From NCBI GenBank assembly GCA_003990765.1, contig RBNJ01000182.1, forward strand, positions 1-37,747: a stretch of 37,747 bases of DNA, read 5' to 3'. The notes under the pieces were generated by a model. That model did no database searches, was not told where the DNA came from, and saw only the letters and a program-made list of their open reading frames with translations. Source of the DNA: Jimgerdemannia flammicorona. Taxonomy: Eukaryota. The translations under genes were made by a program, and so were the position numbers. Each line of letters starts with the position of its first letter. The stretch's first letter is position 1. Shown one piece after another: positions 4,019 through 30,864 of this stretch.

Positions 4019-4044
4019 AATAGGACTAGTGCTCTGAATGAGTC

Positions 4045-4460
4045 AATTCGAATCAAATCTAGATTCGATTTGTCACATGACAGTTTGATTTGAATCTCAA
4101 ATCTGAAGCCATCTGAATCAACTTGGATTTAATCTGAATCGCCCCATCTGAATCACCCCATCTGAATCACCCATCCGAACCACCCCAATCCGAATCACTC
4201 AATCTGAATCACTCAATCCGAATCACCCCATCTGAATCACCCCATCTGAATCACCCATCTGAATCACCCATCCGAACCACTCTAATCCAAATCACTCAAT
4301 CCAAATCACTCAATCCAAATCACTCAATCCAAATCACTCAATCCAAATCACTCAATTCGAATCCTCCAATTCGAATCCTCCAATTCGAATCCTCCAATTC
4401 GAATCCTTCAATCTGAATCCTCATCTGAATCCTTCAACCAAATCCTCCAATCTAAATCCT
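4045..4460 (+). repeat. Left subterminal repeat array of the hAT (putative transposase-binding sites)
   Basis: Many 13-14-bp units ATC(C/T)(G/A)AATCAC(C/T)C, grading into ATTCGAATCCTCCA. Confidence 0.85.
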
Positions 4461-4556
4461 CTACATGACTCATATGCCAGACATGTCCACAACACAACAC
4501 ACACACACGTATACACATACATACATACACATGCATATGCAAACATGCAAACACAC

Positions 4557-7139
4557 ATGTCGACAGATCAGTCTTCAATAGTTCACAGTACCAATGATGC
4601 TTCAAGTTAAACATTCCTGATAGTTCCACACCTTCCATGCAATCCTTGCTCCGAAATCTGGCAACATTGTACTAAGATAGAAGATAATGTTGTTTGTAAT
4701 TATTGCAGGTAAAAAATTAAGATGCACCTATTGACACTTTGTTTTGACACACATATAATATTGTTTTGACACATACATGATATTGTTTCATCCACCCCCA
4801 TGAACTGCACCAGCCAGAAGTTCAAAATGCTTGGGGGTATGACTTCGAACATGAATCGACACATAAAAGACAAGCACTCTGACAAAATCAAAAAGAACAC
4901 AGAGACAAATAAAATCAACATCCAAGCTATAGTGGGTACATTTATCTGATTGCCTGACTATTTCTGTACCAACAATGCTATTTAATCAAAAATTTTAGCC
5001 ATACTCTTCAGCAGAATTTCAAAATCGGCTTATTCGCTGGATTGTGTATACAGACCAGCCATTCACAACCATCAAGAGTGATCAATTGCATAGCATCTTT
5101 GGCCTCCTCAAGCATGATTTATATTTGCCAAGTGCCGATACTATTCACAAAGATGTCCTGGAGGCCTATAGGAAGGAGCATGACAATCTCTGCCAGACAC
5201 TTCAGGTAAAATAAGGGCAGCACTATGACCTTTGCAAGCTGAATTATATAAAAGAGCTCACCAATTTAACCTCACATTCAATAAGCAGAATTCGGCAGGC
5301 AAAATTTTATTTATGATTGACACATGGACATCCCCCAATGCAATTTCGTTTCTGGGCATTACCGGTCATTGGATTGACCTCAATTGGCAGCTTAAATCTC
5401 TCACCCTTGACTTCATCAAACTTGCTGGCCCTCATTCTGGAGACAACATCACAGATGCTTTTATTAGTTGTATCTGGGAGCTTGGGATTACTACCAAGGT
5501 AAAAAAGGGGGGCTTGCTGTCAGGTCAGCATTTTGAGGGAGGTCCTAAACCAAACTAGATTTTATTGGTTACTTATTTTCACATAAATTTGTCAACCAAA
5601 TATTTCAAGTACAGATTTTGGCCATTACAATGGACAATGCCACAAACAACTTAACATTTTTCCAAGGTTTAGCAGCCAGCCTCAAATAGGAAAACATGGC
5701 CTTTAGTGCAGAAAGCTGCCGTATGTGATGCCAGGCCCACGTACTGAACCTCGCTGTTCAGGACTATCTTATGCACATAGACAAAACATCCAAGAGATAA
5801 GGGACCCTGAGTATAATTTCCAAGCTGCACAAACTGGTTGTGTTGATCTGATCATCCCCACAACAATGAGACAAATTTGCTGTGCAGTATAGGGTAATCA
5901 GTTTAGCCCTGAAAGAGCTTATATTGGATGTCTGTATACATTGGAACTCAATATTTGCAATGATCCAGCATGTGCTGGAGTTTGCTGTGGTATGCATCCT
6001 TTTTTTCTTCAGTTGGCTGAAGTAACTGTTTCAGATGATAGAAGATTTATTTTTTTTTAAAAAAAAAAAAAAGCCAATAGATTCAATGATGGCTGCCAAC
6101 AAGGAAATACAGGCTGAGGCTCTAGGTAAAAGCGAGTGGGATGTACTTAGGAATGTTGTCAGAGTTTTGGAAGTAAGTGGTGGTTGCCCTAGCTCCATAC
6201 TCATTTTGTCTGCCTCTGCACAGTGCAACACCTCACCACATATAACTGCTAGTATTTTGACGATTGTATGAAGGATATAGTCAAACAAACGACCCTGACA
6301 ATAAGCTCTGCGATACCGGTATACAACCTTCTGATTGACTGGCTAGAGGACAAGCTTGAGGACAGGCTGGAGGGTTGTAGTAATTTACAATTAAGCCCGG
6401 ATCAGAGAGATGCCATGGAGGTTGCTCTAAGCAAGCTTAGAAAATACTACTCCCAAACAGATACTGCTGTATACTCAATCAGTACAGGTATATCGATGTT
6501 GGCATATGGCCATTGCCCCTTCCAAAATAGAGGAAACTCCGCAAAAACTCACTCTCCTTTTCTTCGAACAGTGCTGGACCCATGCTTAAAGCTACAATAC
6601 TATAAAGATCAGAGCTGGGAGCAACACTTCATTGAGAGAACCAAGCAGGCCATAATTGAAGTGTACCAGAAAAACTATGCACCACCACAAGGTTCTGGCC
6701 GAAGTTCAAATGAATATGCCAAGGGATCCCTCCTGTCTCACATTTACTTTGGCAGAAAGAGGAAGAGGAAGCCGTCAGTAGAAGAGCTACTGTCAATAGA
6801 CGAACTTACCATTTACCTCACCAGTGACTGTGTGGTCCTGCTGGAGGGCACGGAGGTGCTCAACTGGTGGAAGGTGGGTTGTCAGGCAGGTGTTGGACCA
6901 ATTTAACCCACCAATCTAACCACCACTCTATCTACCAGGGTGTGCAGCTGTATCAAACAGACTTCTCCAGCCTGTATGGTATGGCTCGGGACTATCTGGC
7001 GATTCCTGCCTCCAGCGCTCCTGTCAAGCAAGTGTTCTCAGGTAGGGTGGACCTTGTTGCCCCAAAGAGGTGTGTGCTGAATGCTGAGACAATCTGGGTA
7101 TATATGTGTCTGAAGTCTTGGTGGGGCTTGGGCCACTAA
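4557..7139 (+). pseudogene. hAT (Ac-like) transposase with N-terminal BED zinc finger; multi-exon and inactivated
   Basis: ATG at 4557. BED finger SEIWQHC...VCNYC / intron / ...TSNMNRHIKDKH. Then DTWTSPNAISFLGITGHWID, ITMDNATNN, CQAHVLNLAVQD (CxxH), LDVCIHWNSIFAM, LDPCLK, LNWWK, ARDYLAIPASSAPVKQVFS (catalytic ER decayed to KQ) and CLKSW. GT-AG introns and several stops. Confidence 0.93.
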
Positions 7140-7182
7140 AATTCGATGGGTCTATAGATAAGTTGGTTGGCCTTGTGGAATA

Positions 7183-7797
7183 TTTAATACCTTTCAAATT
7201 AATAAAAGGAAAAAAACCTGAGGACTCGGCCCGGAGTTTGTGGCCAAAGTGGGGCAGAGTTGGTGGCAGTGGCAGCGGAGGGAGTGTACAATATTTGCAG
7301 CCCTTAGCCAGCAGCAAGGGGCAGCCCCAAGCTGCCAGTGCCTGGGTCAGTGGGTGGGTCAGTGGGCGGGTCAGCAGAGGGAGCATATAAAATTTGTGGC
7401 CCTCTGCCAGCAGTAAGGGGCAGCCCCAAGCTGCAAGTGTCTGGGTTGGGGGGGGAGGCGGAGGGAGTATGCAAAATTTGCAGCCCTCTGCCAGCAGCGA
7501 GGGGCAGCCCCAAGCTGTCAGCGCCTGGGTCAGTGGGTGGGGCAGGCGGAGAGAGTGCACAAAATTTGTGGCCCTCTGCCAGTGGCATAGGGGCAGCCTC
7601 AAGCCACCAAGGAGTCCAGGGTGGAGGGTGTTTCTGGCAGTCGGAGGGTACTTCTGGCGGTCAGAGGGTGTTTCTGGCAGTTGAAGTTGCTGGTTCGGGT
7701 CCCACAGGCACCCCGGCCCTGCACTGCAGCACCGCACCAGCGGCACTATAGAGTAGGGCTGAGGGGCCAGTAGGGCCCTGTATAATGGCTAAGCTAG
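7183..7797 (+). mobile_element. Non-autonomous Helitron-like element with internal ~85-97-bp tandem repeats
   Basis: 3' end is a GGGCC-agtag-GGCCC hairpin, ~15 nt, then CTAG|T (7794-7798), with a longer decayed GC stem-loop at ~7711-7766. The 5' end A|TTTAATACC may be a decayed TC start. About 3.5 repeats of ATTTG..GCCCTCTGCCAGCAG..AGGGGCAGCCCCAAGCTG lie at 7293-7605. Confidence 0.55.
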
Positions 7798-7892
7798 TGC
7801 TACATAAGAGGTGCCTGACCCAACCCCTCCACATAAGACTGCCTAACTCATACAAAATGGCTGCCTAATCCTCACGAAAGATTGCCTAACCC

Positions 7893-8883
7893 TCACAAAA
7901 ACTGCTCCACCTGCTGGTCCCAGGCCTTGATGAGCCTGTCATCTGTTGTAAGTGCGATGACTGTTGTGTCTGAGCTCTCCTCGAAGGCGACGGTGCCATG
8001 GTGATTATGTGGTTAGAATAGGATGGCCATGTTGGCTGCAAATGGGACCCCGAAACTGTAGGTGAGGTCATACCAGACTCCGCTACTATCCTTCCAGGTT
8101 GGGCCCTTCCTTTCTGGGATATAAAACATTACCAGGGTGATGTTGTTGTCTGTGTGTGTAGGCAGAGAAAGGTTGTGCTCGACATATCCTGATGTGACGC
8201 AAGCGTACGGTTGGGTGAACCCTTGGTCCAGGACCTCATACTGCTAGGCTGTGCTAGTGGATGCCTACCCTTGGTCCAGCCCTGGGAGCCCCAGCTTGGA
8301 AATCTGCCAAAACGGACAGCAACCAGTTAGTCCTTTTTGTGTTCAGGGGGCAGAAACCCCCCAGGCCACAGAAACCCCCCAGGCTGCAGTACCCTAAAAA
8401 AGCAGAGCTCCTCACCTCATATAGTATGCTAAATTGCACCAAGAATATATGTACAGCCGTGCCGAGATCACCACCAAGCTGGCCTGCCATACACTCTACC
8501 AATCTGCTCAAAGAACCCCAGATCATAGCTGCCATTGCCGCACAGGCCATGTCGTGCTCATGTGCAGTTTGCTCTTTGATGGCACTTCTAAAGTTCTGGT
8601 AGGAGTACAGAATCTTGTGCATCCCTGGAATTGTATCAAAAAGAGTATGTTGGCAAAGAGTGTGATTTATCTGGGGAGGGGTTAAAAAAAAAAAGAGAGA
8701 TGAGTACAGGGGATTTCGGAACCCATCCTTCGCCAGTGTTGCAGTATACCTAATTTCTATCCAAACTCCCCTTCCTTGCTTTTTTCGCCCCCTCTTCCCT
8801 GCTACCCAGTATTTGACACAATCCTCGCAAATCTCGTTGATATGGCGGTGAAGCTCATCACCATAGAGATTCCTTACCACCAT
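7893..8883 (-). pseudogene. 3' exons of the hAT cargo gene: candidate TET/JBP-like 2OG-Fe(II) dioxygenase domain
   Basis: MVVRNLYGDELHRHINEIC...GRGVWIEIRY...DMACAAMAAMIWGSL...LYE, then an intron (8415-8304: GTGAGG, GACTAAC branch, CAG), then ISKLGLPGLDQG[48-bp insertion]FTQPYACVTSGYVEHNLSLPTHTDNNITLVMFY...SGVWYDLTYSFGVPFAANMAILF*PHNHHGTVAF...VIALTTDDRLIKAW. HTD is at 8156-8148, HGT at 8000-7992 and the stop at 7895-7893. Confidence 0.65.
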
Positions 8884-8976
8884 TTTTTTTTTTTTTTTTT
8901 TTTTTTTTTATAGTCTCTTGGACTGCCCTTTATTACCGAAGTCTATAATGTAAACAATACAAAGTCACCCCTATCC

Positions 8977-11900
8977 TCAACCGATGCCCCGGGGGCCCAA
9001 ACTCCCCCCCTCATCCTCTCCCTGCCCGAAAACCACCCAATTACCCACTACCTGAACCCTTCCACCACTCTTCTGGGTGATACGCCGCACCAGACCCCTG
9101 TGGTACCCCCCACCCATCTCCCAACCCTGCCACCAGCTATTCAAAATATCCAACATCAACCATTCCCACTGGGCCATCTTGTCATCAACCCCGATCCAGT
9201 GCCTGTCCTCAAATACATAAACCCAATGCCCAGCCAGTCCAACCCACATAGCCAGAGCCCAACTAAGGGTCTGCCATTCGTCCCCAACTCCACTCACCAG
9301 TCGCTGGTGGAGCTCTCCATATTGCCCCCCTTCCTCTCCTTCCCTGATACCCAGCCCTACCCTGTCCATAATACCTCTCCAAAACTCCCCCAAAACCTTG
9401 CATTTACCAAGCCAATGTTCAGGTGTTTGTACCACTCCCCCCTCCTGACCAACATTGAAACAATTCTCACACTCGAATGCTCCACCATCCACCAAGTGTC
9501 CAGACCGATAATTCAACATCACATTCCGCTGTAGGACCTGCCACCACACCACTCAGAACTTGGGGGACAGCCACTGCCACACCCATTTGCTCCAAAGCCA
9601 GAGTCCATTCCAATCCCACTCCTCCCCAATTCCAACCCTCTGCCAGACTTCTGGCCACAGGTCTCCACCTAGGCCTCACAGACACTTCAGGCCCTCGCCA
9701 AGCTAAAAGTCCTCCACCAGGGCCCCACCCAATAGAAGCCTGTCCCACCGCCACATCTATGGTCCCCAAATCTCCTCGGCTTCATCACCTCACCACCGAA
9801 GTCCAATCTTCTTAGCACCATCCACCACCCCCCACTAAAAGCCTGTAAACCGCATCTTCCTGCTCCCGTCCATGGCCACCATCGCAAGCAGATCACTGGA
9901 GCCACCATGTGGGGAGTACCAAACCTCCCACAACCTCTGCATGAGTGGCACCCACTCCTGTCCCCTGAGCTCACTCGCCCTTCGCAGTCACCAGGCTCTC
10001 AGACATAGAAGCCACTTAGTAAAGTCCACTAGGCCCAGCCCACCTCTTTCCAAGGGCAGTGTGAGCACCTCCCAACCAACCTGGCTTCACCGCCCTCCCC
10101 AGATCCATGACCTTGCTATCTTCAACAACTCCTTAACCACCCAGGTTGGGAAATCCAAATGATATCCAACATACCACAGCTTCGGCATCCAGTACATATT
10201 CAACACCATCACACTTCTAGCAAGAGATATATGCCGGCCTCCCCATCTCAGCAAGACATTACCCCACTCCAGAAGTTTATAGTCCCACCATGCCTGGGGA
10301 AGAAGAGATCTGAATACTAAGAAGTAGATTCCCAAGTAGTACACTGGTTCACCCGCTGGTACCACTATCCCAATAATATTGCCACCAACAATTCCAGTGC
10401 CCAGCACCAGTGTCTCGCATTTGTGCCAGTTCAGTTTAGCACCAGAACCCCACTCATACCATTCCACAGTCCTCTGTAACTCTCTCATATCCCCCAAGGA
10501 GCCCAGCCTGACCACCATATCATCAGCAAAGGCCCCCACCTTCCAGTTCACCCCTAAGATATCTAAGCCTCCAATCTTATGCCGAATTCTGTCCAGTAGT
10601 GGCTCCAGGGAAAGAGCATACAATATGGGTGACAAGGGGTCCCCTTGTGGTACCCCACATCCCAGGGGAAAGATCACCCCCCGGTGGCCATTGATGACCA
10701 ATGCCACCTGACTATCCTCCAAGAGGCTGATTAATGATCTTTGGACCCCTGGCGGGATGCCAATCTGCTTCAGCACTCCTTCCAGCCATATTCTCTGCAC
10801 TCTATCATAAGCCTTCTCTTGGTCCAGAAACACCAATCTGCCATCCACTCCTGTCACCCAGGCACCTTCAATCACTCCATGAACCTAGGCTGTCTCATCT
10901 CGAATCAACCGACCACTGACAAACCCATGTTGTTCCACACCAAGAACCTACTGAGCAATGCCTTGCAACCTCATCACCAAGATTTTCATCACCAATTTGC
11001 GGTCTATATCGAGAAGCATAATTGGCCACCAGTTCCTCCAGTCCTCTCGCCTACCCTTGTCCTTAAAGAGCAAAGAGACCAGCTCCAAGCACTGTCCCCC
11101 AATCCAGGCACCAGACTGAAGAACTCCATCACACATAGCAGTCATTTCCTCTAGCACCTCATCCACCCCCATCATCTTCTGCCAAAAATCCCAGGGAAGC
11201 CCATCCTCTCCTGGAGCTGTCCCCTTACTTGTTGAGGCCACAACCCTGCAAATCTCCTCACCACTCACCGGGTCCCCCAATGCCCCAAGTCCCATCACAG
11301 GGTCCAGGTGCCAATCTCCCAGATGTCTTTCAATGTTCAGAGCATCCAATCCCCCATCCTTCTCACTCCAAAGATTCCTCCACCAGGTTCGCAGTAGGTC
11401 CAGAATCACCGGAGTCTCCACCACTAGCTCACCATTCTCGTCCAAAACTCCCTCCCACCACTGCCTCATTTGTCATGCTTGTAACAACCATGACAAGAAT
11501 CTGGTAGGCCTCTCCCCCTCCTCAAGCCCCTGCCACCACAGGTGGGCCACCATTCCCTGCAACTGCTCCTCCTCCTCCCTGCGTAGTACCCCTTTGAGCT
11601 CCTCCACCTCCTGCCAGATCCTCGCAATATACCAATCAGTCATGGCCCCACCCTCCAGCACACCTGCCCATCTCCCCATGAGTGCTGCCAGATGCCGCAA
11701 GGCCCACCTCACCCACCGCCTTTGCTGGGCACACTTCCCTTTCCCTGCTTCCCTTCAATACTCCTGAGCCTTTACCTTCAGCCTTCTCCAGTGGTCCCCA
11801 ATCTCCAGTCTTTGTTCCCACCACCTACCTATGTTTCCAATCACCTCCGATTCCCATCCCTCCCACAACACCCTATCCTCCAACAGGGAAGAATTTAGTC

Positions 11901-12639
11901 GCCAATGTCCAGGCCTCTCCTCATTTCCCCCAAACCTCCCCCCTCCAAGTAGCCCCCAGTGATCAGACCATGGACACCATATGACTTCCAGTGCCAATCA
12001 GACATCTGTTCTCCAACACTCTGCCATTAGTACCCAGTCAATCCTGGAGCCCAGTCCTGCCACCCAGTGGGTGTATATCTGCCGATCAGCCCAAAAATGT
12101 CTTCCTAAGTCTACTAGAGAACACAACCTCTCCATCTCCAACCAGTCACCCAACCCACCACTTTCACTCCACACGCCTCTCCCTCTATCAGTTCTGTCCA
12201 GCTCCTTATCCCATACCATGTTGAAGTCACCCCCCATACAGTCTACTCCAACTTCTCCCAACACACCAGCCTCTTTCAATCTGCGGATCCATTCCACCCT
12301 CTCCCCTCTCTCAGCTGGGCAGTAACAAGACCCGACCATCAGCGGGCCCCATCCAGGCCTCTTCCACACTCCCCACACCACCTGAGACCCCCAATGTCCA
12401 ATGTTCCCAATGTCCCCCATCCCTTTCCAAATGAGAATACACACTTTCCCCCTCCAAACTGCTGTGCCCCCCCATTCCTTAGTCCAATCCTGTAAGTCCA
12501 CATCTGCCTCATAACGAACATCCTGCAGTAAGAAGAGGTCTGCATCCAGTCCCTTAAGCCAACCAAATATATACTTCCTCCTAGCTGACCCCTGTAGCCC
12601 ATTAACGTTCAATGAGAAAATCCTAGTTGTATTGTTCAT
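8977..12639 (-). pseudogene. LINE ORF2: APE endonuclease + reverse transcriptase + C-terminal CCHC
   Basis: SLNVNGL, GGDFN, RIDWV, SDH; APGEDGLP, WWPIMLLDIDRK, LDQEKAYDRV, GVPQGDPLSPILY, FADD, YLG; CENC...EHWLGKC. Broken by stops. Confidence 0.95.
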
Positions 12640-12670
12640 ATTGAAGAAATGTTGCAATAGAGACCCCAAC

Positions 12671-14588
12671 CTATAATTCCATGCTCATCTCATCTCCCAT
12701 CAGATCCAAGTACCGCTCAGCTTCCAATTCACCCTCTGCATTATCCTGAGCATCCAGTGCTCCCAAGATTTCCTGACATTCCACCCTGTCCACTTCCTCC
12801 ATATCAGTCCTGTAGTCCAAGCAGACAGTATGCCACTTCTCCAGTCCCTTCCTCGAATTCCACAAGAAAATTGCTCTGTCACTCACAATTCTCCTAAGTT
12901 CCTCTTTCCACTGATCATCAACCTGATACTCAACTGACTCCAGGAGGACCGCCAGGATCTCATTCCTCATCTTCCTTGGCACCTCCTCCTCCTGTAGGAT
13001 CTCCTCCCAATACTTCTCCTCCAACACCCTGAAGTCCTCACCCCCCAGCTCTTCAGCTGCTACCCCTTCCAAGGTCTTCCACATCTACTTCTCCTCATCC
13101 ACTGCCTCTGCCACCCCCTGAGTGATTTGTCCTCCATCCACCTCGGGGTCTACCAGTACGCTCCTTCTCACTGACTCATCCCACTCCTCATCTGGCACAT
13201 CCATTAGCTCCTCCTCTCCCACTGCCCCATCTGGAACACTATACTGAGAGTGCACACCCTCACCCATTTCAGCATCCACCTCCAAATTGCCCTCCCTCTC
13301 CTCCCCACCTCCGATCCATACTCTGCCCTGTACCATCTCTCCCCCCTCAGCCCAGGTACTCTCCTATGACCCTGCAACTCTCTCTCCTGAGCTCCCACCA
13401 GCCCCACCCCCACCCAGCTTCATCAACAGCTCCTTCTGGATCCTCCTCCCCTACATCTTTTCCTATGCCCCCTTCTCTATCCAGATCCTCTTCCTATCTA
13501 CCTCCCCCATCACCATCCTGGCCTCAAACTCCTGCCAGGCCAATCTCCTCCTCGCCACTGCCCCTTCCAGGTCCTCCAGCGCCTCCAACAGATCCTCCTC
13601 CTCCTCTAGAGTCCCCTTCACCCTGGTGACCTTACACTCCACCAGTCTCCACCTCAGTGCTACTGGCCAGTCCCTTGACTTCCCCATATTCTCCTTCCCA
13701 GCCAGCTACACCCTGACATCGACATCGCCAGTTCTAAGCTCTGTGCCCTCCCAGACCTTGAACCCAACATCTACAATCTCACCATACTTCTTGACTGCCT
13801 CCACAACCAACTCCCTGGTCCTTTCCTTTGACACAGTCAGGAGGTCCAATACCATCAACTGCACCACTCGGGGGTCCCAGCGCATGCACCAGGCCATAGG
13901 GACCACAACTCTGCCCACCATCACCCCCTTCTCCATAGCTGCCAATAAGGTGTCTTCCTCCTCAAACCCTACCTCAACCCCTTCCTTATCTCTCAAGAAC
14001 TTCACCAATGCTGCTCTCTTAGCCTCCTGCGCCACCAGCCCCAAAATCATCCTCACCGTCACTGCCAAGCCCCCTGAAGCACATCATGACTATGAATTCT
14101 GACCTCGACTTCTTGAGTAATAGGGCCAACACTATGCCCATCACCCCATCAGCCAGGTCCCCAGGCCTCATGCCCACTCCAAGTTCCAAATTGCCAATTG
14201 CCATCACATCTGGATTTTTTGCCAGATCCCCAGTCACAGCTCCATCAACAGTCACATCTCCAGCCCCTACTCCGGCCCCTTCCCTACCACCAGAGGTACC
14301 TCGGGGAGCACCTTCCTGACCCCCAGCAGTAGCCATCGATGTCTTCCCCAGTCCCAGCCAACCATCTAGCCCAGAAGCCATCTTTTCCATTCTGACCTTG
14401 TCAGCAAAGGTCGACCTCTCCCCTCCTCTCTGCCTCAGACCACCCCTTCCTCTGCCACCTGGGCCTCGGCTAGCTATCGAGGCCCCTGGCATCCCCAAAC
14501 CATCTCCCCTCCTCCCTACCTGCTGCCAGCCAAAGGTGCTGTCACCCCCCTGGCCAGTATACTCACCAGTTCAATCGTTGCTATCCAT
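12671..14588 (-). pseudogene. LINE ORF1 (Gly/Arg-rich N-terminus, Glu-rich helical C-terminus)
   Basis: Chain of minus-strand ORFs (14019..14498, 13706..14068, 13463..13687, 13085..13336, 12671..13084) upstream of ORF2, colinear with LINE copy 2. ATG at 14588; stops and a frameshift near 14070. Confidence 0.8.
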
Positions 14589-14676
14589 GTTGTTAGTCGT
14601 TGGACACCAAAAACGTTGTAAAAAGTGTTGTCTGAGTCTTGTGTCACCCAAATGTTACTGGTGAAAGGTCCGCTTG

Positions 14677-15744
14677 TTCCTTACCACCATCGCAACCACC
14701 TCTCCACATTCATTAATAAAGATATAGTTCTCTTCATCATTGGTTACTCCTGCTGGCCAATGGACCCCTTGGTTGAGTACGATTGACTCTGATTCGAATA
14801 TAGACCCCCAAGCCTTGATGACGATGCTGGTACTACTCATGCTGAATATCTTGCCCTCAAATTTCTCTATTTGATCAGATACCGAACGTGGTTGAACTCA
14901 GATAACTTTGAACTCTCCTTTCAAATAGAACTGAGCCCTGATCTGAGGGACCAAGATAAGTATGCAGATGGGTTGCATGCAGGCAGGTTGTGTGTAGGCG
15001 GGTTGCAGGCAGGTTGCATGCAGGTGGGTTGCATGTGGGTGGGCAGGTTATGTGCAAACGGGTTGTATGTGGGTTACATGCAGGTGTGGGTGTTTTTAGG
15101 GGGAGACCATATAAAAATGAAATTAAATAAAACATGGAGATGGGTATTTCAGAAAAGAGTGTGAGTGAGTGAGCTGCATGCTGACGAGTTGCATGCCGAC
15201 GAGTTGCATGCCGACGAGTTGCATGAGTTACACAAGAATTGCTCACAAAGGCTTGCTTCTATTCCTTTTGAGACCTCCACCACGCGATACATTGACTCAA
15301 CAGCTCAGCCACCAAAGGCATGCCCCACAACATCCGCCAGCCTTTCTTCATCTTGACCAGATGTTGCGAATAAAGTCAGCAGATCTTGCCATAGAGCTAT
15401 AGACCCTAAGAAAAGCATGAGATGAATTGGGTTGTGCTGGGGAAGTTTAAATAAATACAAGTAAACAAGTGGCAGCCGAGTGAGCAACCTACATCTACTA
15501 TCGGCTGCTCCAAAAAGGCTGCCACATACATAGCTGTGAGGTCTGTGAATTCCGAGGTCTGAAGGGCTGCTGTGAGTTGTTGCCAGAATTCTCCCTCATC
15601 TCCACCATTGCCATCACCACCACCACCACTGTCACCCCTTTGGCTCTCGATGAGCAGCTTGTGTGCTGTCCATATGAGAAAGAATCTAACATTGTCAGCA
15701 GAGAGTGTGTTTCCACCTCAAATACTCCCTCTTTTGACAATCAT
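14677..15744 (-). pseudogene. 5' exons of the hAT cargo gene
   Basis: Exon ...IRAQFYLKGEFKVI*VQPRSV...MSSTSIVIKAW...IFINECGEVVAMVVRN joins in frame to MVVRNLYGD (8883) once the LINE is removed. Upstream exon candidates lie at ~15405-15250 and 15744-~15490, with TGA stops at likely CGA sites. The splicing model is partly uncertain. Confidence 0.6.
14968..15227. repeat. Minisatellite-like GGTTGCATG(C/T) and GAGTTGCATGCCGAC repeats in a probable intron of the cargo gene
   Basis: Repeated 12-16-bp GGTTGCATG units at 14968-15085 and 15-bp units at 15170-15227. Confidence 0.7.
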
Positions 15745-15944
15745 TGCAGGGTGAAAAATGAGTAGACTGGACCAACGTATGAATTAAGGGCTGCTGTTTT
15801 GTTTGCTTGTGATGCAGCAGGAAAGAACAAAGAAAAAGAACAAAGAAAAGAGAGAGAACAAAGGAAAGGGTGATGTTACCAAAGTGCGGCAGAAAAAAAA
15901 AAACAAGAGCGAAATGAACAAAAGAAAGGGTGACATCACCAAAG

Positions 15945-16140
15945 ATTTCAATCTGAATGGATCAATCTGGATGGGTCAATCCAGATGGATCATTCAGATA
16001 GATCATCTGGATAGATCAATCTGGATGGATCAATCCAGATCAATCTGGATCAATCTGGATCAGATCACGAGACCAATTCAAGTTGATTCAAATCCATCAC
16101 ATGATGAATCTGAATCGAATCTTATCCGGATCAACTCCAT
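15945..16140 (-). repeat. Right subterminal repeat array of the hAT
   Basis: Repeated GATCAATC(C/T)(A/G)GAT and ATCTGAATC motifs next to the right TIR. Confidence 0.75.
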
Positions 16141-16163
16141 TCATTCAGAGCACTAAATAGGAC

Positions 16164-18642: not shown

Positions 18643-18645
18643 AGT

Positions 18646-20235
18646 TGTCATATAGTAGTCACTGAGTCCTTCAAATATGCTAGATTCTCTTTAAGGTATA
18701 TCTCTTAGACTAACTCAAGTTTGTTATAAGCAAGTTCTTATTGGAGTGCCTTCCCAAGGTCTTATAGTCCTCAAACTTCTTATCTTTAACTGTCTTGTTA
18801 TCTCTTAGATTGCTTACAAGAAAGTGTGTATAAGTAAACTTAACTAACATTATTTTAGAGGAAATAAGAGAGGTATTTATACAAAATATAATTCAATGGT
18901 TGCTAAGATATAAAGCTAAATATAAATTCCAATAACTAAAATAAAATGCTAGAACAGGAAAAACTACTAAGTTCCAGAGTTAGCACTGATGGTTGTATAG
19001 GTTTAGGATACTGGTATAATTTCAGTAATATAGGAAAATAGTGCTGGAATAATTCAGTATCACATCAGAATGCTGGTGCTGACATAATTCAGTATTACAT
19101 CAGAATACTAGTGCTGGCATAATTCAGTATTATATCAGAATACTGGTGCTGGCATAATTCAGTATTACTAAAGAACTTTAAAGCAGAATATTCAAGACTA
19201 TAGGGGCTTTATCCTCATCAGAGGTCAAGATGTCTTCAAAGGAGATGAGGTCTACAAATTTATTATCATTATGTATCTTATATATGTCATGCAGAATGAT
19301 GTCATTGCTGATGATGTCATTATGTTCAGTGGTGGCAGAAATAAAGAGGTCTGGGGCTCTCTAGTCTATAAGGTTCTCTTCTACAAAATAGGGGACAAAT
19401 TTGGGGTCTTAGAGAGGTCTAACCTGGATACTTGGGCCTTAGAATACTGAGATCAATCCTTGCAGGAATTGGTCTGGGTTGTCCTGGAGGATAGAATACC
19501 AGAAGTCTTCTACTTTGTCACTATTGAGAGTGATAGTGGACTGGACTTCTGTAGCTACTCTGACTTCTAGTATATTGATATGGCAGGCTGATAGATCTCT
19601 GAAATCTGAGACTCTAACAAACTCTAAGTTAGGGATCATCTATAGTATATATCTGAAGATCTGATATATCTTCTTAGTTATCCTTATTTTATATATATCC
19701 ATAGGAATAGTATCTTGTAGCTCTTGAGTGCTAGCTTGTGGGAACTCCCAGCAGAGGAGGTTTCTTATTTTATACTCCTGCCATATTTGGAGGTATTTGG
19801 TAGTAATGGTGATCCTTATTTCCATTTTATAGTAGTAGAGGATATAATAATAAAGGTCACTAGTACCCAGGTTGATACTAGGAGTCCTTCTTGAGCAGGT
19901 CCTCATGGCTCTTCTGATGTCTTGGAATATTCTTTCTTCAACTGAGATATCTTGGTGATTTCTTGACCTTGAGGTTTGGTGAGCAGTAGGCATTTTGTTT
20001 GTAGTAAGTCTTTGAGCTATTTTGGGATTAGTGGGTCTTATTGGTTACTGCTACTATAGTTCCTTAATCCTTCTTTTATATTCCTCAAGATACTCATACT
20101 ATGGTCACAATGACTCACAGTTGGTCATCATTACTTATCTTATATACCATATGATCTTCTTGTACTCCAATCTAGTAGCTTGTAAGAAAAGGCTATCTCC
20201 TGTACTGATGTTATCATTCTGGGGTCACCATTATA
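18646..20235 (-). repeat. 5' LTR of element B (1590 bp)
   Basis: Colinear direct repeat of 1926-3480; ends TGACA before the PBS. Confidence 0.9.
19178..19993 (-). pseudogene. 272-codon LTR(U3)-encoded ORF, family B 5' LTR copy
   Basis: ORFs 19640..19993 and 19439..19639 are contiguous in frame; the 816-bp span equals the 3' LTR copy. Confidence 0.7.
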
Positions 20236-20430: not shown

Positions 20431-20970
20431 TAGTACTCTAAACAAGTCAATTTAATCTAGATTAGATTCAGATTGGATTTGGATTAAATCCTATCTAAAT
20501 CAACTATTGTTTTGATTTCCAAATTAGACAATTAAATGTTTATATCAATAACTTGATAAATAATTATCCAATTTTGATGATTTTAGTATTATTTGAAAGC
20601 TCTTAATAAGACCTTTCTAATGATACTAAGAATATTAAAATTGGAATATGCATTACTGAGTTATCAAGAAAAATATCTGACTCACCAATTTTAGAAATTA
20701 TTCAACTTACTGATTTTGGAAATTTCTTCAAAAGAACATTTTTCTTAATAGCTTGGTAATGTATAATCTGATTTTAATATTCTTAGTCTCATTAGAAAGA
20801 CCTTATTAAGGACTTTCAAATGACATCAAGATTATCAAAATTGGATAATTATTCATTAAGTTATTAATGCAAATATTTAATTGTCTAATTTGGAAATCAA
20901 AACAATGGTTGATTCAAATTGATCTAGATGGGATTTGAATCTGATCCAGATTAGCTCATTCAGAGTACTA
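20431..20970. mobile_element. Non-autonomous hAT-family fold-back MITE (540 bp)
   Basis: Termini TAGTACTCTAAACAAG / CTCATTCAGAGTACTA resemble the TIRs of the large hAT. Long imperfect inverted arms at ~20495-20675 and ~20735-20920. Flanks TAGTAGAT / TAGTAGTA are an imperfect 8-bp TSD. Confidence 0.8.
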
Positions 20971-22242: not shown

Positions 22243-23314
22243 AATTTCTTAAACTTTCTGAAATATAGAAAATTCCAAACATCTAAAACTAGTCTAAAAA
22301 AGAACTTTGGTTAAGATGTCAATCTGATCTTGAAATCAATAAGTATAGAGAATGTACTCTATATAAAATTAATCTTAACCTAAAGAAAATAATCTTCTAG
22401 AATATCTAGAACTTTCAGAAAACTCTTCCAGAACTTTCAAAAAATCCTTTCAGAACTAAGTAATAGTTACCCTAATAAGTAACCCTCTTACAACTTAGTA
22501 GTAGCAGTTTACAATCCAATTCTGCTTCAAGATACTTCCTCACCCTACTACAAACCTCTATAAGAATTCCTACAAGTTGGTATAAAGTCCAATCTCTGAA
22601 CTGGAATTTATCTCAAAATATCTGATAATCTGGAGAGAATTGAGCCTAATATATAAGAATAATTTGACCTCCACATCTACAACAAGTGGAACAGACTTCA
22701 TCAATAGAAGAAAGTACTCCAATTAAATCAGCAGATAAGTGAAACCCTATACACTGAACTTCTTGCTCTACACCCTGCAAGTTAAGATGAAGAAGATCTT
22801 ATAGAAGTCTTCTTTACTCTTCTCAATAAGAGTTTTATTAGCTCTACAAATCCAAGTGACCTAGAATAACCAGCAACTATCTTTCTAGCCTTAGTTCCTC
22901 ATAAAGCCCAAGCCTCTATAGTTAAGTAGCTCAACTCTACTGACTTTCACTATACCAGAACCAAGACCATCTTATACTACTGCTTCCAGAATTATAAGAC
23001 TCACTATATTCTTAAATAAGAAGTAAGAGAAACTCTTCATCAATAACCTAACTCTGAACTAGAAACAGGCCCAGCTATAACCCTATCTGAAACTGAGACC
23101 AATACTAAACTAAAACCAGATTTTGAATTAAACCCATCTGAAATCTAATATACAACTGATTCTATTTACTTTGATATCAAGCAAACTCAATTACATAAAG
23201 ACTAAACCAAAGAGAAGGAGGAGTATCTCAGTAAATTCAATCCTGGATATACTATCAAAGAAGATATACCTCTATTAGGACAAAACATACCTCAAAGATA
23301 TGAAGCCAATGACT

Positions 23315-26300
23315 GGCTATCCCTATCTAAATCACCAGAGCTCATTCCAAGGTCAACCATTCATCTCCTACTCTACTCACTAATCTTCATCAGAGGTCTC
23401 TCCATCTCCTTCCTTCCCCCCCTCCCACCAGAGGCTACAATTCCAGTCTGCTAGAAATACTATACCAAAACTTTCCCAAAACTTTACACTCCCCTAGCCA
23501 ATATTCAGATGTTTGTACCACTTCTCTCTCCTGACCAATGTTTATATATTTCTTATACTCAAATATGCTATCCACTACAAAGTGCCCTGACTGATAGTTC
23601 AGCATTATATTCTGCCTTAAGAACCTCTACCATATCACCCAGAACTTAGGGGGAAGCTATTGTATCACTCACTTGCTCTAAGACTAAATACTATTCCAGT
23701 CCCACTCCTCACCAATCCCCACCCTTTGCCATGCTTCAGGCCATACTTCCCCCTTGAGCCCCCTCATACATTCTATTCTATCACCAAGCTGGAAGTCCTC
23801 TACCAATGTATCTCTTAGCAATAGTCAGTCCCATCTCCACATCTGTGGTCCCCAGTCCTCTACCCTCTCATTCCCCTTCTACTAAAGTCCAATTCTCCTT
23901 TTACTATCTACCACTTCCTACCAAAAATCTTTATATCACATTCTCCTGCTTCCATACATAATCACCATTGCAAGCAGGTCACCAGTTGCTCTGCAAGGGG
24001 AATATTAGATCTCCCACACCCTCTGCATGAGTGGTACCCACTCCTGGCCTCTCAACTCACTTACTCTCTTCAGCCACCATGCTCTCAGACAATATAAGTA
24101 CTTGGTAAAGTCTACTAAACCCAGTCTGCCTCTGTCAACAGGTAGAGTCAGAACCTCTCAGCCTATCTGACTTTGCTGCCTGGTTTAAATCTATGATCTT
24201 GCCATCTTCAGAAGTCTCCCAACCACCCATGCTAAGAAGTCTAGATAATACCTTACATACTACAGCTTTGGTAGCCAATATACATTCAGCACCATCACTC
24301 TTCCTGCTAAGGATATATGCTGACCACCCCACCTCAAGAGAATACTCTCCAATACTAGTAGCTGGCATTCCTACTATGTACAGGGCAGAAGAGATCCATA
24401 TATTGAGAAGTATATCTCCAAGTATCAGACTAGTTATTCTCCTGGAACCACTGTTCCAATCACATTGCTACCAACTATTCTGCTGCCTAGCACCAGAGTC
24501 TCACATTTGTATCAATTGAGTCAAACACTGAAGCTCCTCTCATATTATTTCACAGTCCTCTTTAATTTCTCCACATCTGTTAACAAATCCAGGCCAACCA
24601 CTATATCATCCACAAAACCCCCAATCTTCCAGTTAATCTCCAAAATATCCAAACCCCCAATTTGATACTGAATCCTATCCAATAGAGGCTCTAATGACAG
24701 GGTATATAGGATGGGTGATAAAGGATCCCCTTGCAGCACCTTACAACCTAGTGAAAAGGTCACACTCCTGTACCTATTTACTACTAATACTACTTAACTA
24801 TTCTCTAATAGACTGATTAATGACTTCCTGAACTCTGGGAGAACTCCCACATATTTCAGCACTCCCTCCAGCCAGACCCTCTTCACCCTGTTGTATGCCT
24901 TCTCCTAATCCAGAAATACTAACCAGCCATCAACCCCAGCTGCTCAAGCTCCTTCAATCACTCTATAAATCCAGGCAGTTCTATCTTGGATTAACTAACT
25001 ACTAACAAATCCCCTCTACTCCACTCCTAGCATCTGCTGAGTGATCTCCTGCAGCCTAGTCATCAAGATCTTTATCACCAGCTTGCAGTTTATATCAAAG
25101 AGTATGATCAGTTGCCAGTTCTTCCAATCTTCTCTTCTCTCCTTATCCTTATAGAGCAAGGAAACCAGCCCTAGGTGCTGGCCTCCAATCTAAGTTCTAG
25201 ACTAAAGGACCTCACTACTTATTGCTGTTATCTCCTCCAATACTACCTCTACCCTAGCTATCTTTTTTCAAAAATCTCAAGGAAGCCCATTCTCTCTTAG
25301 AGCTGTCCCCTTGCTTATCAAAGCCAAGACCTTATATACCTCCTCACCCCCTTCTTCTTCACTCCATAAGTTCCCCCAATGAGTTTCAAAATCATAAGAG
25401 TCTCTACCACTATCTCTCTATTCTCATCCAAAATATCATCTCACCACTGTCATGTTCTCTAAGCTTGGAGCAACTTTGAAAGAAATCTAGTAGACCTCTC
25501 CCTCTCCTCCAACCCCTGTCACTGTAATCTCACTACTATCTCCTTTAGCTGAATCTCTTCCTCTATTCATAGTACTTCCTTTAGCTCATCAACTTTCTTT
25601 TATATCTGCAGGATTTGTCAATCAGCCTCCTCCTAATTCTCCAGCAACCCTGCCCATCTCTCCAGAAGTACTACCAATCTCTGTGAAGTCCATTGCACTT
25701 GCTGCTACTGCTAAACACTCCTTCTTTTCCCTATATCTCTGAGCACTCGATTTCAGCTACTATTAGTGATTCCTAATTCCCAATCTCTGCTTCTACCACT
25801 TACTAATCTTCTCAATAACTTCTATCTTCCAGTCTGTCCATAAGGAGTCATTCTCCAATAGAGAAGAATTCAGTCACCAATATCCAGGCCCATTCCCACT
25901 TCCTCCAAATCTCTCACTTCCTATCAGACCCCAGTGATCTGACTATGGGCACCAAACCATCTCCAGTATATCCCAGACATCTACTCTCCAGCACTCCACC
26001 ATCAATACCCAGTTAATTCTGGAGCCCAGTCCTGCCACCCAGTAGGTATAAATTCAGCAATCCACCCAAATCTATTGCCCCAAGTCAACCAAGGAGCTCA
26101 ACCTCTCAATCTCCATCCAATCATCTAACTCACTACTTCTGCCTCTTATTCCTCTCCTACTATTAATCCTATTCATCTCATTATCTCATATTATATTGAA
26201 ATCATCCCCCAGGCAATCAATTACAGCCTTATCCATAATACCAGTCTCTCTCAAGTCTCTGATCCAATCTATACATTTCCTCCTCTCAGCTGGGCAATAA

Positions 26301-28645
26301 TATGATCTAACAGTTAAAGAGTTCTACCCAGACCTCTTCTATACTCCCCACACCAATCTACTCTCCCAATGTCCAATATCTCTAATGTCTCCCATCCCCT
26401 TTTAAACCAGAATGCCCACCCACCCAGTCTATATAACTGCCCTACCCCATTCTCTAGTCCAGTTCTGTAAGTCCATGTCTACCTCATACTATATATCCTA
26501 TAGTAAGAAGAGATCTGCATCCAGTCCCCTCAGCCAGCCAAAGATATTCCATCATTGTATCATACCCCTCAACTCATTCACATTCAAAGAAAATATTCTA
26601 GTTGTATTGTTCATATTGAATAATATTTGATATTGAGAGCCTAGTCTAGTACTCCATACTTATCTCATCACTAGCCAGATCTAAGTACTGCTCTGCCTCT
26701 AATGTATCCTCTACTACAGCCTGAGCATCCAGTGCTTCCAGGATTTCCTGACACTCCACCCCATCCACAACCTCCATTTCTGCCCAATAATCTGTATATA
26801 CTACTCTCCACTTCTCTAACCCCTTCCTTGAACCCTACAAGTACTCTATCTTATCATTCACCATCCCTCAGAGGACCTCCTCTCTCTGATCATCAACTTG
26901 ATATTTCACTGACTCCAAAAGCACTACCAAGATCTCATTTCTAATCTTCCTCAGCACCTCCTCACTATACAAAATCTCCTCCCAATGTCTATTGCTTAAA
27001 TCTCTCTCCTTAGCTCCTCAGCCACCACCCCCCTTCAGAGTTTTCTATAGCCACTTCTCTTCATCCACCATCTTGGTAATACTCTGAGCAACCTCTTTGA
27101 GCCCCACCACAGGGTCCACCAAAGTGCTTCTCCTTCCCAACTCATCCCACTCCTCCTCCAGTATATCTAGTAGTTTCTCCTCTCCCCCTGCCCCATCTGA
27201 GATACCATACTGGGAGTGTACTTCTTCTCCCATTTCTGTATCCTCTACTATATCACCCAGTCTCTCCTTGCTTAATCTACTCTGGGCTACATTCTGAGCC
27301 AACCTGTGCTCCTCAGCCTAAGTACTCTCCCTCAGTCCAGCACTACTTTCTCCTATCCTGCTATCTACCACACCCCCTCCTAGCTTCTCCAATAACTTCT
27401 TCTGGATTCATCTCTCCTGCATCTTCTCCCAGACCATCTTGTCCATCCTGATCCTCTTTCCATCTACAATCTCTACTACTATCTTGGCTTTATACTCCTT
27501 CCAAGCTAGTCTCCTCCTCTTGACTGCTCCTGCCAGATTCTCAAGAGCCTCCTGCAAGTCCTCTTCTTCCTCTGGCATCTCTTTCACCCACAAGACCTTG
27601 TACTCAACTTGTCCCTACTTAAGAGTTGCAGGTCAGTTCCTTGTCTTCTCTATATTCTCTCTTTTAGCTAATCTCACCCTAATGTCAATATCTCCTATCT
27701 GAAGTTCAGTACTTTCTCAGACCCTAAACCCAATGTCTATAATCTCTCCATACTTCTTGACCACCTCCACAATTAGCTCTCTGGTCCTCTCCCTTGACAC
27801 TATAGGAAGATCCAATACTGTCAACTATACTACTCAGAAGTCCCAGCACATACACCTGACCATAGGAATCACTACTCTGCCCATTACTACCCCCTTCTCC
27901 ACAGCCTCCAACAATGATGCCTCTTCCTTAAATCCAACCTCAACCCCTTCTTTCCCCTTCAAGAACTTCACTGAAGCTGCCCCCTTTACCTCCTGTGCCA
28001 CCAACTCCAGAATTATTCTTATAGTTACATACTACCATGTCTTGGAAGTATAATATGATGGTGAATTCTGACCTCAACTTTTTGAGTAACAGTACTAATA
28101 CCATGCTAGTTATATCATCTGCTAGGTCTCCAGGCCTTGTACCCTCCCTCTGTCCTGATCTGTCAACAACCATCATATCTGGATTTTTTTCCAGATCCCC
28201 AGTCACAGCTCCATCAGCAGTCACATCTCCAGCCCCTACTCTCCCCCCCCCTCCTACTGCCCAACCCTCTCATAGGAGCCCCTCTCTGTCCCTCAACTAT
28301 AGCCATCAATGCCTTTCCCAGTCCTAACTAACTATCTAGACCAGATGCCATTCTTCTCATCTTGACCTTGTTAGTAAAGATTATCCTCCTCTCTCCTTAT
28401 TATCTCAATCTGCCCCTCTCTCTATCACCAATACTGCAACCAACCATAGAAGGCTCTGGTATCTCCAAACCATCTCTCCATCTCTTCTCAATATGCTACC
28501 AGTCAAAGGCACTACTGTCCCCCTGGCTGATATGCTTACTAGTATAGTTATTGCTATTTATGTTGATAGTCTCCTTTTACCAAAAACATTGCAGAAAGTA
28601 TTGCCTGAGTCTTGTGTCACCTGAATATTACTGGTAAAAGGGTTT
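23315..28645 (-). mobile_element. Second, more decayed L1/Tx1-like LINE, 3'-truncated
   Basis: Colinear with LINE copy 1 from its 5' end (CTGAGTCTTGTGTCACC...TTACTGGT) to ~9230. Contains LQGDPLSPILYTLSLEPLLDRI and GFVDD. No poly(A) or TSD; internal deletion near 25350-25450. Confidence 0.92.
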
Positions 28646-28899
28646 TGTAGAACAAAATATATCTATATAATAATAGACAGCTATCTATTGAGTCTTTACT
28701 CCAGACTCACAACTATTACTCTAGTAACTTATACAGACTCAAAGAACACCATTATACTCTACATCAGTACTGTAAGTTATATTAGTAATACTACTACCAG
28801 TAGTCTAACTGCCTTCAGTAAACAACATAGCAAATCAATAGATTCTAGACCTCACAGCCCAAGTAGCTATAATGGTAGCAACTATTACTGCCTTAGCAG

Positions 28900-29806: not shown

Positions 29807-30825
29807 GTTCCTTTCTCTACTACCTTACTGGTCACAATAGTTTGGTAAGCAACCTTCTGAGTCCACTTTCCACAATTATTACCCTCTCTATCTTGGGTTG
29901 GTTTGCTGTACCTATTGCAGGATAGTAGGAGAGAGGCAATGGTGATGAGTTGTCTCTTTATCAGTATCAGATTGGTGTCTTCTCCACTTTTTCACAGTTT
30001 CTGATATCTTTGGCTATATCTGGAGTACATCTATTTTGGTGTGGTGCTTTCTTCCTTTTGCTATTGCCAACAAGGTACTGTCTTGGTGTGTTATGAACTA
30101 CATAGGGAGTCAGCCAACCTTGGGCATCAAGTGCTCAGTGTAGGTTATCTGCAGGTCCTTGGTACCTATGGTGGGGCCCTCTGGCTTTGGTGAGCTTCTC
30201 AGTGAGTATAGTTCTAATATAAGTGACTACTTTTTAGGTGATATTGGGATGAGAGGAGAGATGGCTGTCACAGATAGGAAGAAGGGTGATAATAGTGAAC
30301 CAGTAGGGTATTAGACTGAGGGCAGTCATTGGGGCTGGGGTGGATACTGTTTTGGTGGGACCTTTTAATTGGTACAGAGTAGTTAGGTGGTAGGTATCAC
30401 TCTTGGCTTCTTTTGGCAATTTGGCAGATTGGGCCCTGGTTATTGGGAAGAGTTGGGGGGCCTGAGGCTACCTATTTTAGACATCTTAGCTATACTCAAC
30501 TGAAACTAGGAGCTGATATAGCAATATGATCAAGACCTGCAGGCTTGAGTAGTGGGGTATTGGAGATCTCCTCCTGCCTCACATATAAGTCCTTTACTTA
30601 TCTTGACTGGAAGAACCAGGTCCTACCCACTGTGATATACTTTGATGAGAGTTTTTCTTTACCTGTCATTCTCTTTGGAGTGATAGGGGCTATTCTATTC
30701 AGCTTGGATATAGCCTTATACATATATTGGGATCTTAGGTATATGCTTTTGGTTATTAGTATATAGCTGGGTTCCCTCTGGTGGTAGGGAGAGCATGGTG
30801 TACATAATGAGGTGTGGGCTAATAG

Positions 30826-30864
<39 letters not shown>

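Follow-up and report, generated by a model that had tools for sequence, protein, structure and literature searches.

A dead hAT transposon of Jimgerdemannia flammicorona whose convergent second gene may encode a divergent TET/JBP-like dioxygenase

The DNA analyzed here is a stretch of 37,747 nucleotides from Jimgerdemannia flammicorona (NCBI GenBank assembly GCA_003990765.1, contig RBNJ01000182.1, positions 1 to 37,747 of the forward strand; henceforth the window), in which positions 4027-16155 constitute a transposon of the hAT superfamily with two convergent genes, namely a transposase gene on the forward strand and a second, cargo gene on the reverse strand. The reading that we favor, and hold to be moderately probable, is that of a dead copy of an autonomous hAT with an 8-bp target duplication, whose cargo product is predicted to be TET/JBP-like and nearest to the PE type of transposon-borne proteins described by Kojima 2025 (PMC12730594), but with an HxD motif; when intact, this enzyme would oxidize the 5-methylcytosine (5mC) of the element.

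The inverted ends and target duplication that a preliminary description of this locus had reported as intact are indeed so. An exact 15-mer, TAGTGCTCTGAATGA, is found at 4027-4041 on the forward strand and at 16141-16155 on the reverse strand, with the two complementary at 15 of 15 bases and their likeness stopping after base 15, and both are flanked by copies of the 8-bp target-site duplication AATAGGAC (4019-4026 and 16156-16163). Allowing up to 2 mismatches, the window contains three matches to TAGTGCTCTGAATGA against 0.16 expected, a number reached in 0 of 100 shuffles; the third copy lies at 20956-20970 and has one mismatch. Inward of the ends we observed a left subterminal array of ~14-nt ATCTGAATCACCC-like repeats at 4129-4420 (forward strand; 11 overlapping registers of a 97-nt reference with a spacing of 14), and, through repeat-family comparison, short GATCAATCTGGATG-like repeats on the right at 15937-16060. 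The first five bases of the element, TAGTG, fit the usual hAT terminus pattern, YARNG. Remnants of the transposase extend over 4999-7139 (forward strand) as open reading frame (ORF) pieces at 4999-5214, 5229-5558, 6253-6906 and 6828-7139, with frame changes breaking the gene into at least four pieces. The piece at 6828-7139 matches the hAT dimerization domain (Dimer_Tnp_hAT, PF05699) with an e-value of 1.7e-8 (34.6 bits, where the cut-off is 21.4), which is the only domain that Pfam finds in this gene. The piece at 5229-5558 contains an IDTWTS motif, and any assignment of the DDE catalytic residues of the transposase leans on motifs that we presume to be characteristic of it. The ends, the 8-bp duplication and the dimerization domain all agree and confirm that the element belongs to the hAT superfamily.

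Canonical hATs, such as Ac, hobo, Tam3 and the fungal hATs, have an 8-bp duplication, short inverted ends, subterminal repeats, a C-terminal dimerization domain and miniature derivatives, and all these traits are shared by the element in the window. A ~540-bp miniature derivative of the same family is present at 20431-20970: its right end, TAGTACTCTGAATGA, is one mismatch away from the end of the hAT element, its left end equals the first 28 bases of the element except for transitions, its internal inverted arms are 207 nt long, and it is bordered by a decayed 8-bp duplication (TAGTAGAT / TAGTAGTA). To our knowledge canonical hATs carry the transposase gene only. The layout proposed earlier, with a second gene convergent to the transposase between the hAT ends, is upheld by the dimerization domain on the one side and on the other by a reading of 361 codons for the cargo gene.

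This reading joins three pieces on the reverse strand: an upstream coding piece (14691-14897; 69 codons, open), a middle coding piece (8416-8883; 156 codons, open) and a last exon (7896-8303; 136 codons). They amount to 1083 nt, all in frame, and contain only three stops, at codons 238, 245 and 322 (TAG at 8268-8266, TAG at 8246-8244 and TAA at 8015-8013), which lie in the last exon and all arose at CA or TG sites. The upstream and middle pieces are separated by a nested long interspersed nuclear element (LINE) on the reverse strand, with ORFs for an endonuclease and a reverse transcriptase (Pfam: Exo_endo_phos, e-value 1.9e-7; RVT_1, e-value 1.1e-18) and a poly(A) at 8884-8912. Because its 14-bp duplication, ATGGTGGTAAGGAA, occupies 8870-8883 and 14677-14690, the LINE proper was delimited as 8884-14676, and the first 14 nt of the middle coding piece correspond to this duplication. 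Among the contig joints listed in the public sequencing runs discussed below, none skips the LINE. The middle piece and the last exon are separated by a 112-nt GT..AG intron (8304-8415), the removal of which restores the frame. A second in-frame intron within 8588-8707 was considered and rejected because its removal would lose a YxYxNFR block conserved in the homologue P0004. The transposase in several frames, together with a cargo gene split by the LINE and interrupted by three stops, bears out the earlier view that this copy is dead.

In the preliminary description the gene became visible upon removal of the LINE, the intron and a supposed 48-bp insertion at 8232-8279. The first two steps hold, given that the homologue P0006 runs unbroken over the LINE junction and that the intron has GT..AG borders, but the 48 bp are kept in frame in P0008, an open sister sequence, and are therefore coding. 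Contigs of two public runs also cover 8232-8279, most of them with C for the T of the window's first TAG (place 8267), and the stretch holds a motif that by eye is common to the published PE-type proteins. The motifs originally pointed out, namely LPTHTDNN, GVWYDLTYSFGV, AILF and HGT, are all present in the rebuilt reading. Furthermore, the Arg that had been reported as lacking after the distal His is found 21 residues downstream of it, within TTDDRLIKAW, in both the window copy and P0008. The start proposed at 15744 could not be sustained: the ATG there opens 8 codons only, and 14898-15250, the ~350 bases 5' of the upstream coding piece, is of low complexity with many stops. The region 14898-15744 (reverse strand), a candidate 5' part of the gene, thus consists of low-complexity repeats with no homologue supporting it.

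Relatives of the cargo protein were sought by scanning 1.84 billion representative proteins in full with HMMER, the middle piece (P0002) being the query. The scan returned three hits, two of them true relatives and independent metagenome proteins, P0006 (128 residues) and P0004 (55 residues), and the third, P0005, a repetitive bacterial-type protein that we took as spurious. P0006 shows 29% identity to the upstream piece and 41% to the middle piece in an alignment that continues across the LINE junction, and so independently confirms the reading of the gene prior to the LINE insertion. P0004 is 50% identical to the middle piece, and at 8604 a difference listed for other copies brings back the Pro found in P0004. 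A word-indexed protein search with the last exon, in which X was placed at the stops, recovered a third metagenome protein, P0008 (136 residues), with 104 of 130 residues identical, no gaps and an e-value of 6.7e-66; judged from this alignment it is an open sister copy, 80% identical, which reads Q, W and Q at the window's TAG, TAG and TAA. LPTHTDNN, HGT and TTDDRLIKAW are identical in both available copies; a loss of HxD...H in sister copies, which by the preliminary description would have spoken against its reading, was thus not seen in these two. At 7896-7925 (reverse strand) the window has QQ (CAG CAG) against WW in P0008; since CpG decay of CGG CGG on one strand or the other can give either, an ancestral RR may be supposed.

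Other searches were negative within their respective scopes. Word-indexed protein searches for longer relatives confirmed none of 93 candidates with P0002 and none of 605 with P0006; two scans of JGI metagenome contigs gave 199 and 90 pattern matches, and prokaryote genome contigs 59, with none confirmed in either set. A scan of viral contigs with P0008 produced no match, and four viral "relatives" reported with 0 loci were dismissed as mere pattern matches over 8 residues, given that neither an exact 39-nt probe nor the back-translated pattern PTHTDNNI matched anything. In a protein atlas a 76-residue piece matched only short unnamed phage clusters, and P0002 had no usable match.

We then compared the cargo protein with the PE-type domains in Table S1 of PMC12730594; this comparison was made by eye, and accordingly has no computed alignment or score behind it. 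Eight colinear blocks were recognized in the same order. The first of these, NYIFINECGEVVAMVVRNL, which spans the LINE junction, stands against NYIFVD..KEIVGLVARNW and GEIVAMVYRNF of the PE type; it is followed by RYTA (GISYTVS in P0006) against GYSAGSRS, by AAMIWGSLSR (AAMMWGTISR in P0004) against FALFWNMAR, by LGLPGLD against YGLPRMA, and, inside the 48 bp discussed above, by QYEV..GFTQP against IYEF..LAPP. Toward the C-terminus, YGFRVPFAANTAVLFQPHDLHGT of P0008 has 14 of 23 residues identical by eye to YGIRVRAAANTLIAWQPKDWHGT of the A. bisporus entry, with the window's TAA stop aligning with the Q of WQP, and ALTTDDRLIK stands against SIVTPVRLVK. The Arg 21 residues past HGT falls in this manner on the Arg in T..RL(V/L)K of the PE type, and is a candidate 2-oxoglutarate residue. 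The LVMFYIP that follows the HxD resembles instead AFVMFIP of the PU type. Both the window protein and the PE type thus run in the same order from a GE.VA.V.RN strand through YG.RV..AANT....QP...HGT to T..R(L)(V/I)K; both are products of passenger genes of DNA transposons, and neither is easily linked by sequence to classical TET. They differ in that the PE type has HxE where the window protein has HxD, or HN[L/I] under another alignment, and in that the window protein is longer by ~36 residues between its Y(S/T)A block and its FW/IW block, and by ~5 ahead of the metal-binding His. Within the entries of that table, these similarities suggest that the cargo gene is in all likelihood related to the TET/JBP-like genes borne by transposons.

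The carriage of such a gene by a hAT, of which the preliminary description knew no instance, has already been published. Kojima (PMC12730594) describes rust transposons of seven lineages, hAT among them, that contain TET/JBP genes; the hAT lineage concerned, hAT7, occurs in six Puccinia species, makes 7-bp duplications and carries a PU-type TET. The very divergent PE type, with its hallmark HxE, comes from Pezizomycetes and Agaricales, and is linked to TET only through HHpred e-values of 1.4-19 and the structural similarity of predicted models, which match the structures of CMD1, NgTET and CcTET at e-values below 1e-5. Like the element in the window, hAT7 of Puccinia combines a hAT transposase and a TET/JBP-like gene within one pair of inverted ends, and its PU-type protein likewise has an HxD and after it a hydrophobic strand that ends in IP. 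The distinctions are nonetheless several. The duplication in the window is of 8 bp and not the 7 bp of hAT7; hAT7 elements start with CAACGGTGGGC/CAGCGATGGGC, whereas the window element starts with TAGTGCTCTG, which is absent from the supplement of PMC12730594; and the TET gene in three hAT7 families is upstream of the transposase and shares its orientation, while the cargo gene lies downstream of it and is convergent. The window protein has no counterpart of the PU blocks GG.MW..GWRK and RHCT, and a motif search of Table S1 found neither its THTD nor its HHGT. CcTET of Coprinopsis cinerea, considered here together with the AG-type TETs of Kyakuja, shares with the window protein the transposon association and an HxD...H triad, and is according to PMC12730594 the only fungal relative with demonstrated chemistry, namely oxidation of 5mC and of 6-methyladenine (6mA); however, the AG entries of Table S1 that were compared show no block similarity to the window protein recognizable by eye, and the CcTET/AG-type carrier is Kyakuja or Zisupton rather than hAT. 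The tables of PMC12730594 do not include an 8-bp-duplication hAT carrying a protein of this type, and our literature searches on the subject turned up, besides the paper itself, only a 2026 review in which it is cited. Transposon-borne TET and hAT carriage are thus known, and the window differs from the published tables in that its hAT lineage makes 8-bp duplications and its PE-like protein has HxD.

If the fold assigned to the family in the literature and the biochemistry of TET enzymes extend to it, the intact cargo protein would be a 2-oxoglutarate/Fe(II) dioxygenase, binding iron via the His and Asp of HTD and the His of HGT, and 2-oxoglutarate via the downstream Arg. Acting on the DNA of the element itself, it would oxidize 5mC, and would thereby loosen silencing that relies on methylation, or lessen the C-to-T decay of methylated DNA. 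Several observations weigh against this reading, and we set them out here and in the next two paragraphs alongside the alternatives on which they bear. The discussion in PMC12730594 states that the function of the PE and PU types is without experimental validation, and an anti-silencing role is speculative there too, so that the anti-silencing system of the preliminary description is to be regarded as speculation. It also cannot exclude another activity for the PU and PE types, with CMD1 among the nearest solved structures. Accordingly, the cargo protein, which lies too far from any assayed enzyme for a match to the Pfam Tet_JBP family, could be a TET/JBP-like dioxygenase with another substrate or chemistry, such as CMD1-like glyceryl transfer to 5mC, JBP-like thymine hydroxylation or CcTET-like oxidation of 6mA. 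Nothing discriminates between these substrates, but the extreme CpG loss of the host makes 5mC the obvious relevant mark, and we consider a different activity unlikely.

The metal site is where the window protein departs most directly from the PE hallmark: HxE is absent, and both the window copy and P0008 have HTD, or HNL/HNI at the other candidate position. In one alignment HTD stands opposite the PE-type HxE and is preceded by five extra residues, so that 5 residues more than in the PE, PU and AG types separate HTD from the conserved G/N-Y. In the other, HN[L/I]SLP stands opposite H.E..P, preserving the H-to-P spacing but with Leu in the window and Ile in P0008 in place of the PE glutamate, which would imply that the canonical carboxylate was lost as a feature of the family and not through the decay of a single copy. 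The second alignment would suit a protein with a TET-like scaffold but without catalysis, which serves the element otherwise, for example by binding DNA or chromatin, and the fact that no family model recognizes the cargo protein is in keeping with this. However, a complete HxD is present 7 residues further on, followed by the PU-like hydrophobic strand ending in IP, and the distal HGT and Arg are kept; a triad so complete is not expected in a pseudoenzyme. We give this possibility a smaller chance still than that of another substrate. Since the first alignment requires fewer gaps and keeps the triad, we prefer it; the metal-ligand His appears ambiguous between HN[L/I] and HTD, with HTD favored.

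The domain and structure tests that could have supported a dioxygenase directly gave no positive result. Tet_JBP (PF12851) and all 2-oxoglutarate families of Pfam were silent at e-values up to 10 for P0001, P0002, P0003, P0007, P0008, P0006 and P0004, and no Tet_JBP or 2-oxoglutarate/Fe(II) family was found in 11 ORF pieces at e-values up to 1. The Pfam/HMMER check for the double-stranded beta-helix fold proposed with the original description thus ended in no match, in Pfam or among PDB sequences; the AlphaFold check proposed with it gave a predicted local distance difference test (pLDDT) of 35.3 from the single sequence and 32.7 from a two-row alignment, values too low for use, and no fold search was made because models of this quality give meaningless matches. 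Moreover, the scan of 1.84 billion proteins yielded just the 2 true relatives, both tiny fragments; the 20% of residues at which the window copy and P0008 differ is about what neutral decay would give; and the similarity to TET/JBP, being a reading of a table by eye, comes without statistical support. With no computed similarity to any dioxygenase, the cargo gene might be an orphan second ORF of a hAT that is unrelated to TET/JBP, its motif matches being due to chance or convergence and its C-terminal tail perhaps a single WD40-like blade. In phmmer searches of PDB the cargo sequences found no TET, and only the C-terminal tail had weak WD40/coatomer-like matches, in which VAFEESSDTTVIALTTDDRLIKAWD aligned with WD40 repeats and with coatomer beta' at an e-value of 0.089. 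We rejected the WD40 matches as an artifact, since they arise from ~5 bits added over many identical designer repeats, with e-values of 0.07-1.8 for natural WDR5. The same tail matches the PE-type C-terminus, and a series of eight blocks that keep their order over ~300 residues, one of which in P0008 is identical at 14 of 23 positions to a Table S1 entry, is hard to obtain by chance, leaving an unrelated ORF improbable. Of the original claim of a TET/JBP-like dioxygenase as hAT cargo there remain, then, the hAT with its second gene, the eight PE-type blocks recognized by eye and the HxD...HGT...R arrangement in both copies, while Pfam, PDB and the fold models lent no support.

The distribution of the element was examined through contigs at least 80% alike to the window, compared across four public sequencing runs in 30 bins; five runs were listed, with shares of 0.04-0.16, and no RNA run was among them. 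Run X1 has 3799 such contigs, and all 30 bins, including those with cargo pieces, are covered in all four runs. The summed depth in X1, which is not a copy number, is 95-167 for the cargo pieces and 177-287 for the transposase. The hAT family is therefore abundant, with many copies elsewhere, and other copies likely also carry the cargo gene. That this copy alone captured a host gene, in a one-off event, appears very improbable: no contig in the four runs links the cargo gene to a hAT end in another copy, a further point against a family-wide gene, and P0008, P0004 and P0006 come from contigs of only 755-1019 bp without genomic context, but the coverage of the cargo pieces in four of four runs, their depth of the same order as that of the transposase in X1, and an 80% identical sister, P0008, are typical of a repeat family. 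In two of the four runs one contig each, with a depth of ~2, joins 4020 to 16158 and skips 12,137 bases, which correspond to the element together with a single duplication copy; these contigs are the empty-site form, allelic or paralogous. Direct repeats at 1925-2611 and 18645-19366 (93% and 82% alike), with a spacing of ~16.7 kb, flank the hAT, which may hence sit inside or between copies of another repeat, in which case the empty-site contigs would be paralogous and not allelic.

The strong CpG decay of the host repeats noted in the preliminary description is evident from our counts. The observed/expected ratio of CpG is 0.15 for the window and 0.00-0.01 for older repeats. Inside the hAT and its LINE it is 0.24-0.53; their G+C content is higher as well, and they are hence probably younger than the other repeats. 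Of the differences to other copies listed for run X1, about 83% are transitions, with the window more often having T or A where other copies have C or G. This decay is directed at CpG: repeat-induced point mutation of the Neurospora type was rejected on account of the TpA/ApT index, which is 0.18-0.80 in five of six parts of the element and 1.19 in a 756-bp spacer, and of the (CpA+TpG)/(ApC+GpT) index of 1.45-2.50, neither of which conforms to that process. An older second copy of the LINE family lies at ~25850-28641, with matched blocks 70-86% alike; the CpG ratio around it, computed over 22900-28650, is 0.00 over 5.7 kb at 43% G+C.

Among the remaining features, the 3' ends of the two genes are separated by a G+C-rich spacer at 7264-7545 with 3 tandem copies of a 99-nt unit; a 254-residue ORF over it matches no family and was set aside as a repeat artifact. 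Outside the element, a large inverted repeat at 29840-31996 (817-nt arms, 79% complementary, 523 nt apart), accompanied by further nested inverted pairs, is probably another foldback or inverted-repeat element. A search of the window against Rfam had zero matches, and Pfam found 0 families in 14 further ORF pieces, 11 of them outside the element and 3 in the transposase region. A sigma-70 promoter scan is of no relevance for eukaryote DNA.

A transposon-carried methylcytosine oxidase is a proposed counter-defense against genome silencing, and such a system would face the strongest pressure in a genome with near-total loss of CpG from its repeats. The locus contributes another transposon lineage and a divergent type of protein from just such a genome, whose repeats have lost CpG almost completely. 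As this copy is dead, and as the idea has been published before, hAT carriage included, its value is that of one more data point, but it points to a family abundant enough in public runs for rebuilding. More tentatively, as a possibility that we would place below an even chance, the cargo protein may represent a fourth, as yet unclassified type of transposon-borne TET/JBP-like enzyme, with a PE-like scaffold in which a canonical HxD is followed by a PU-like strand, borne on a classical 8-bp hAT in a host lineage outside those surveyed. If so, the capture of methylcytosine oxidases by DNA transposons would be wider than the three published types, and this fourth type may sit between those of the rusts (PU) and of truffles and mushrooms (PE).

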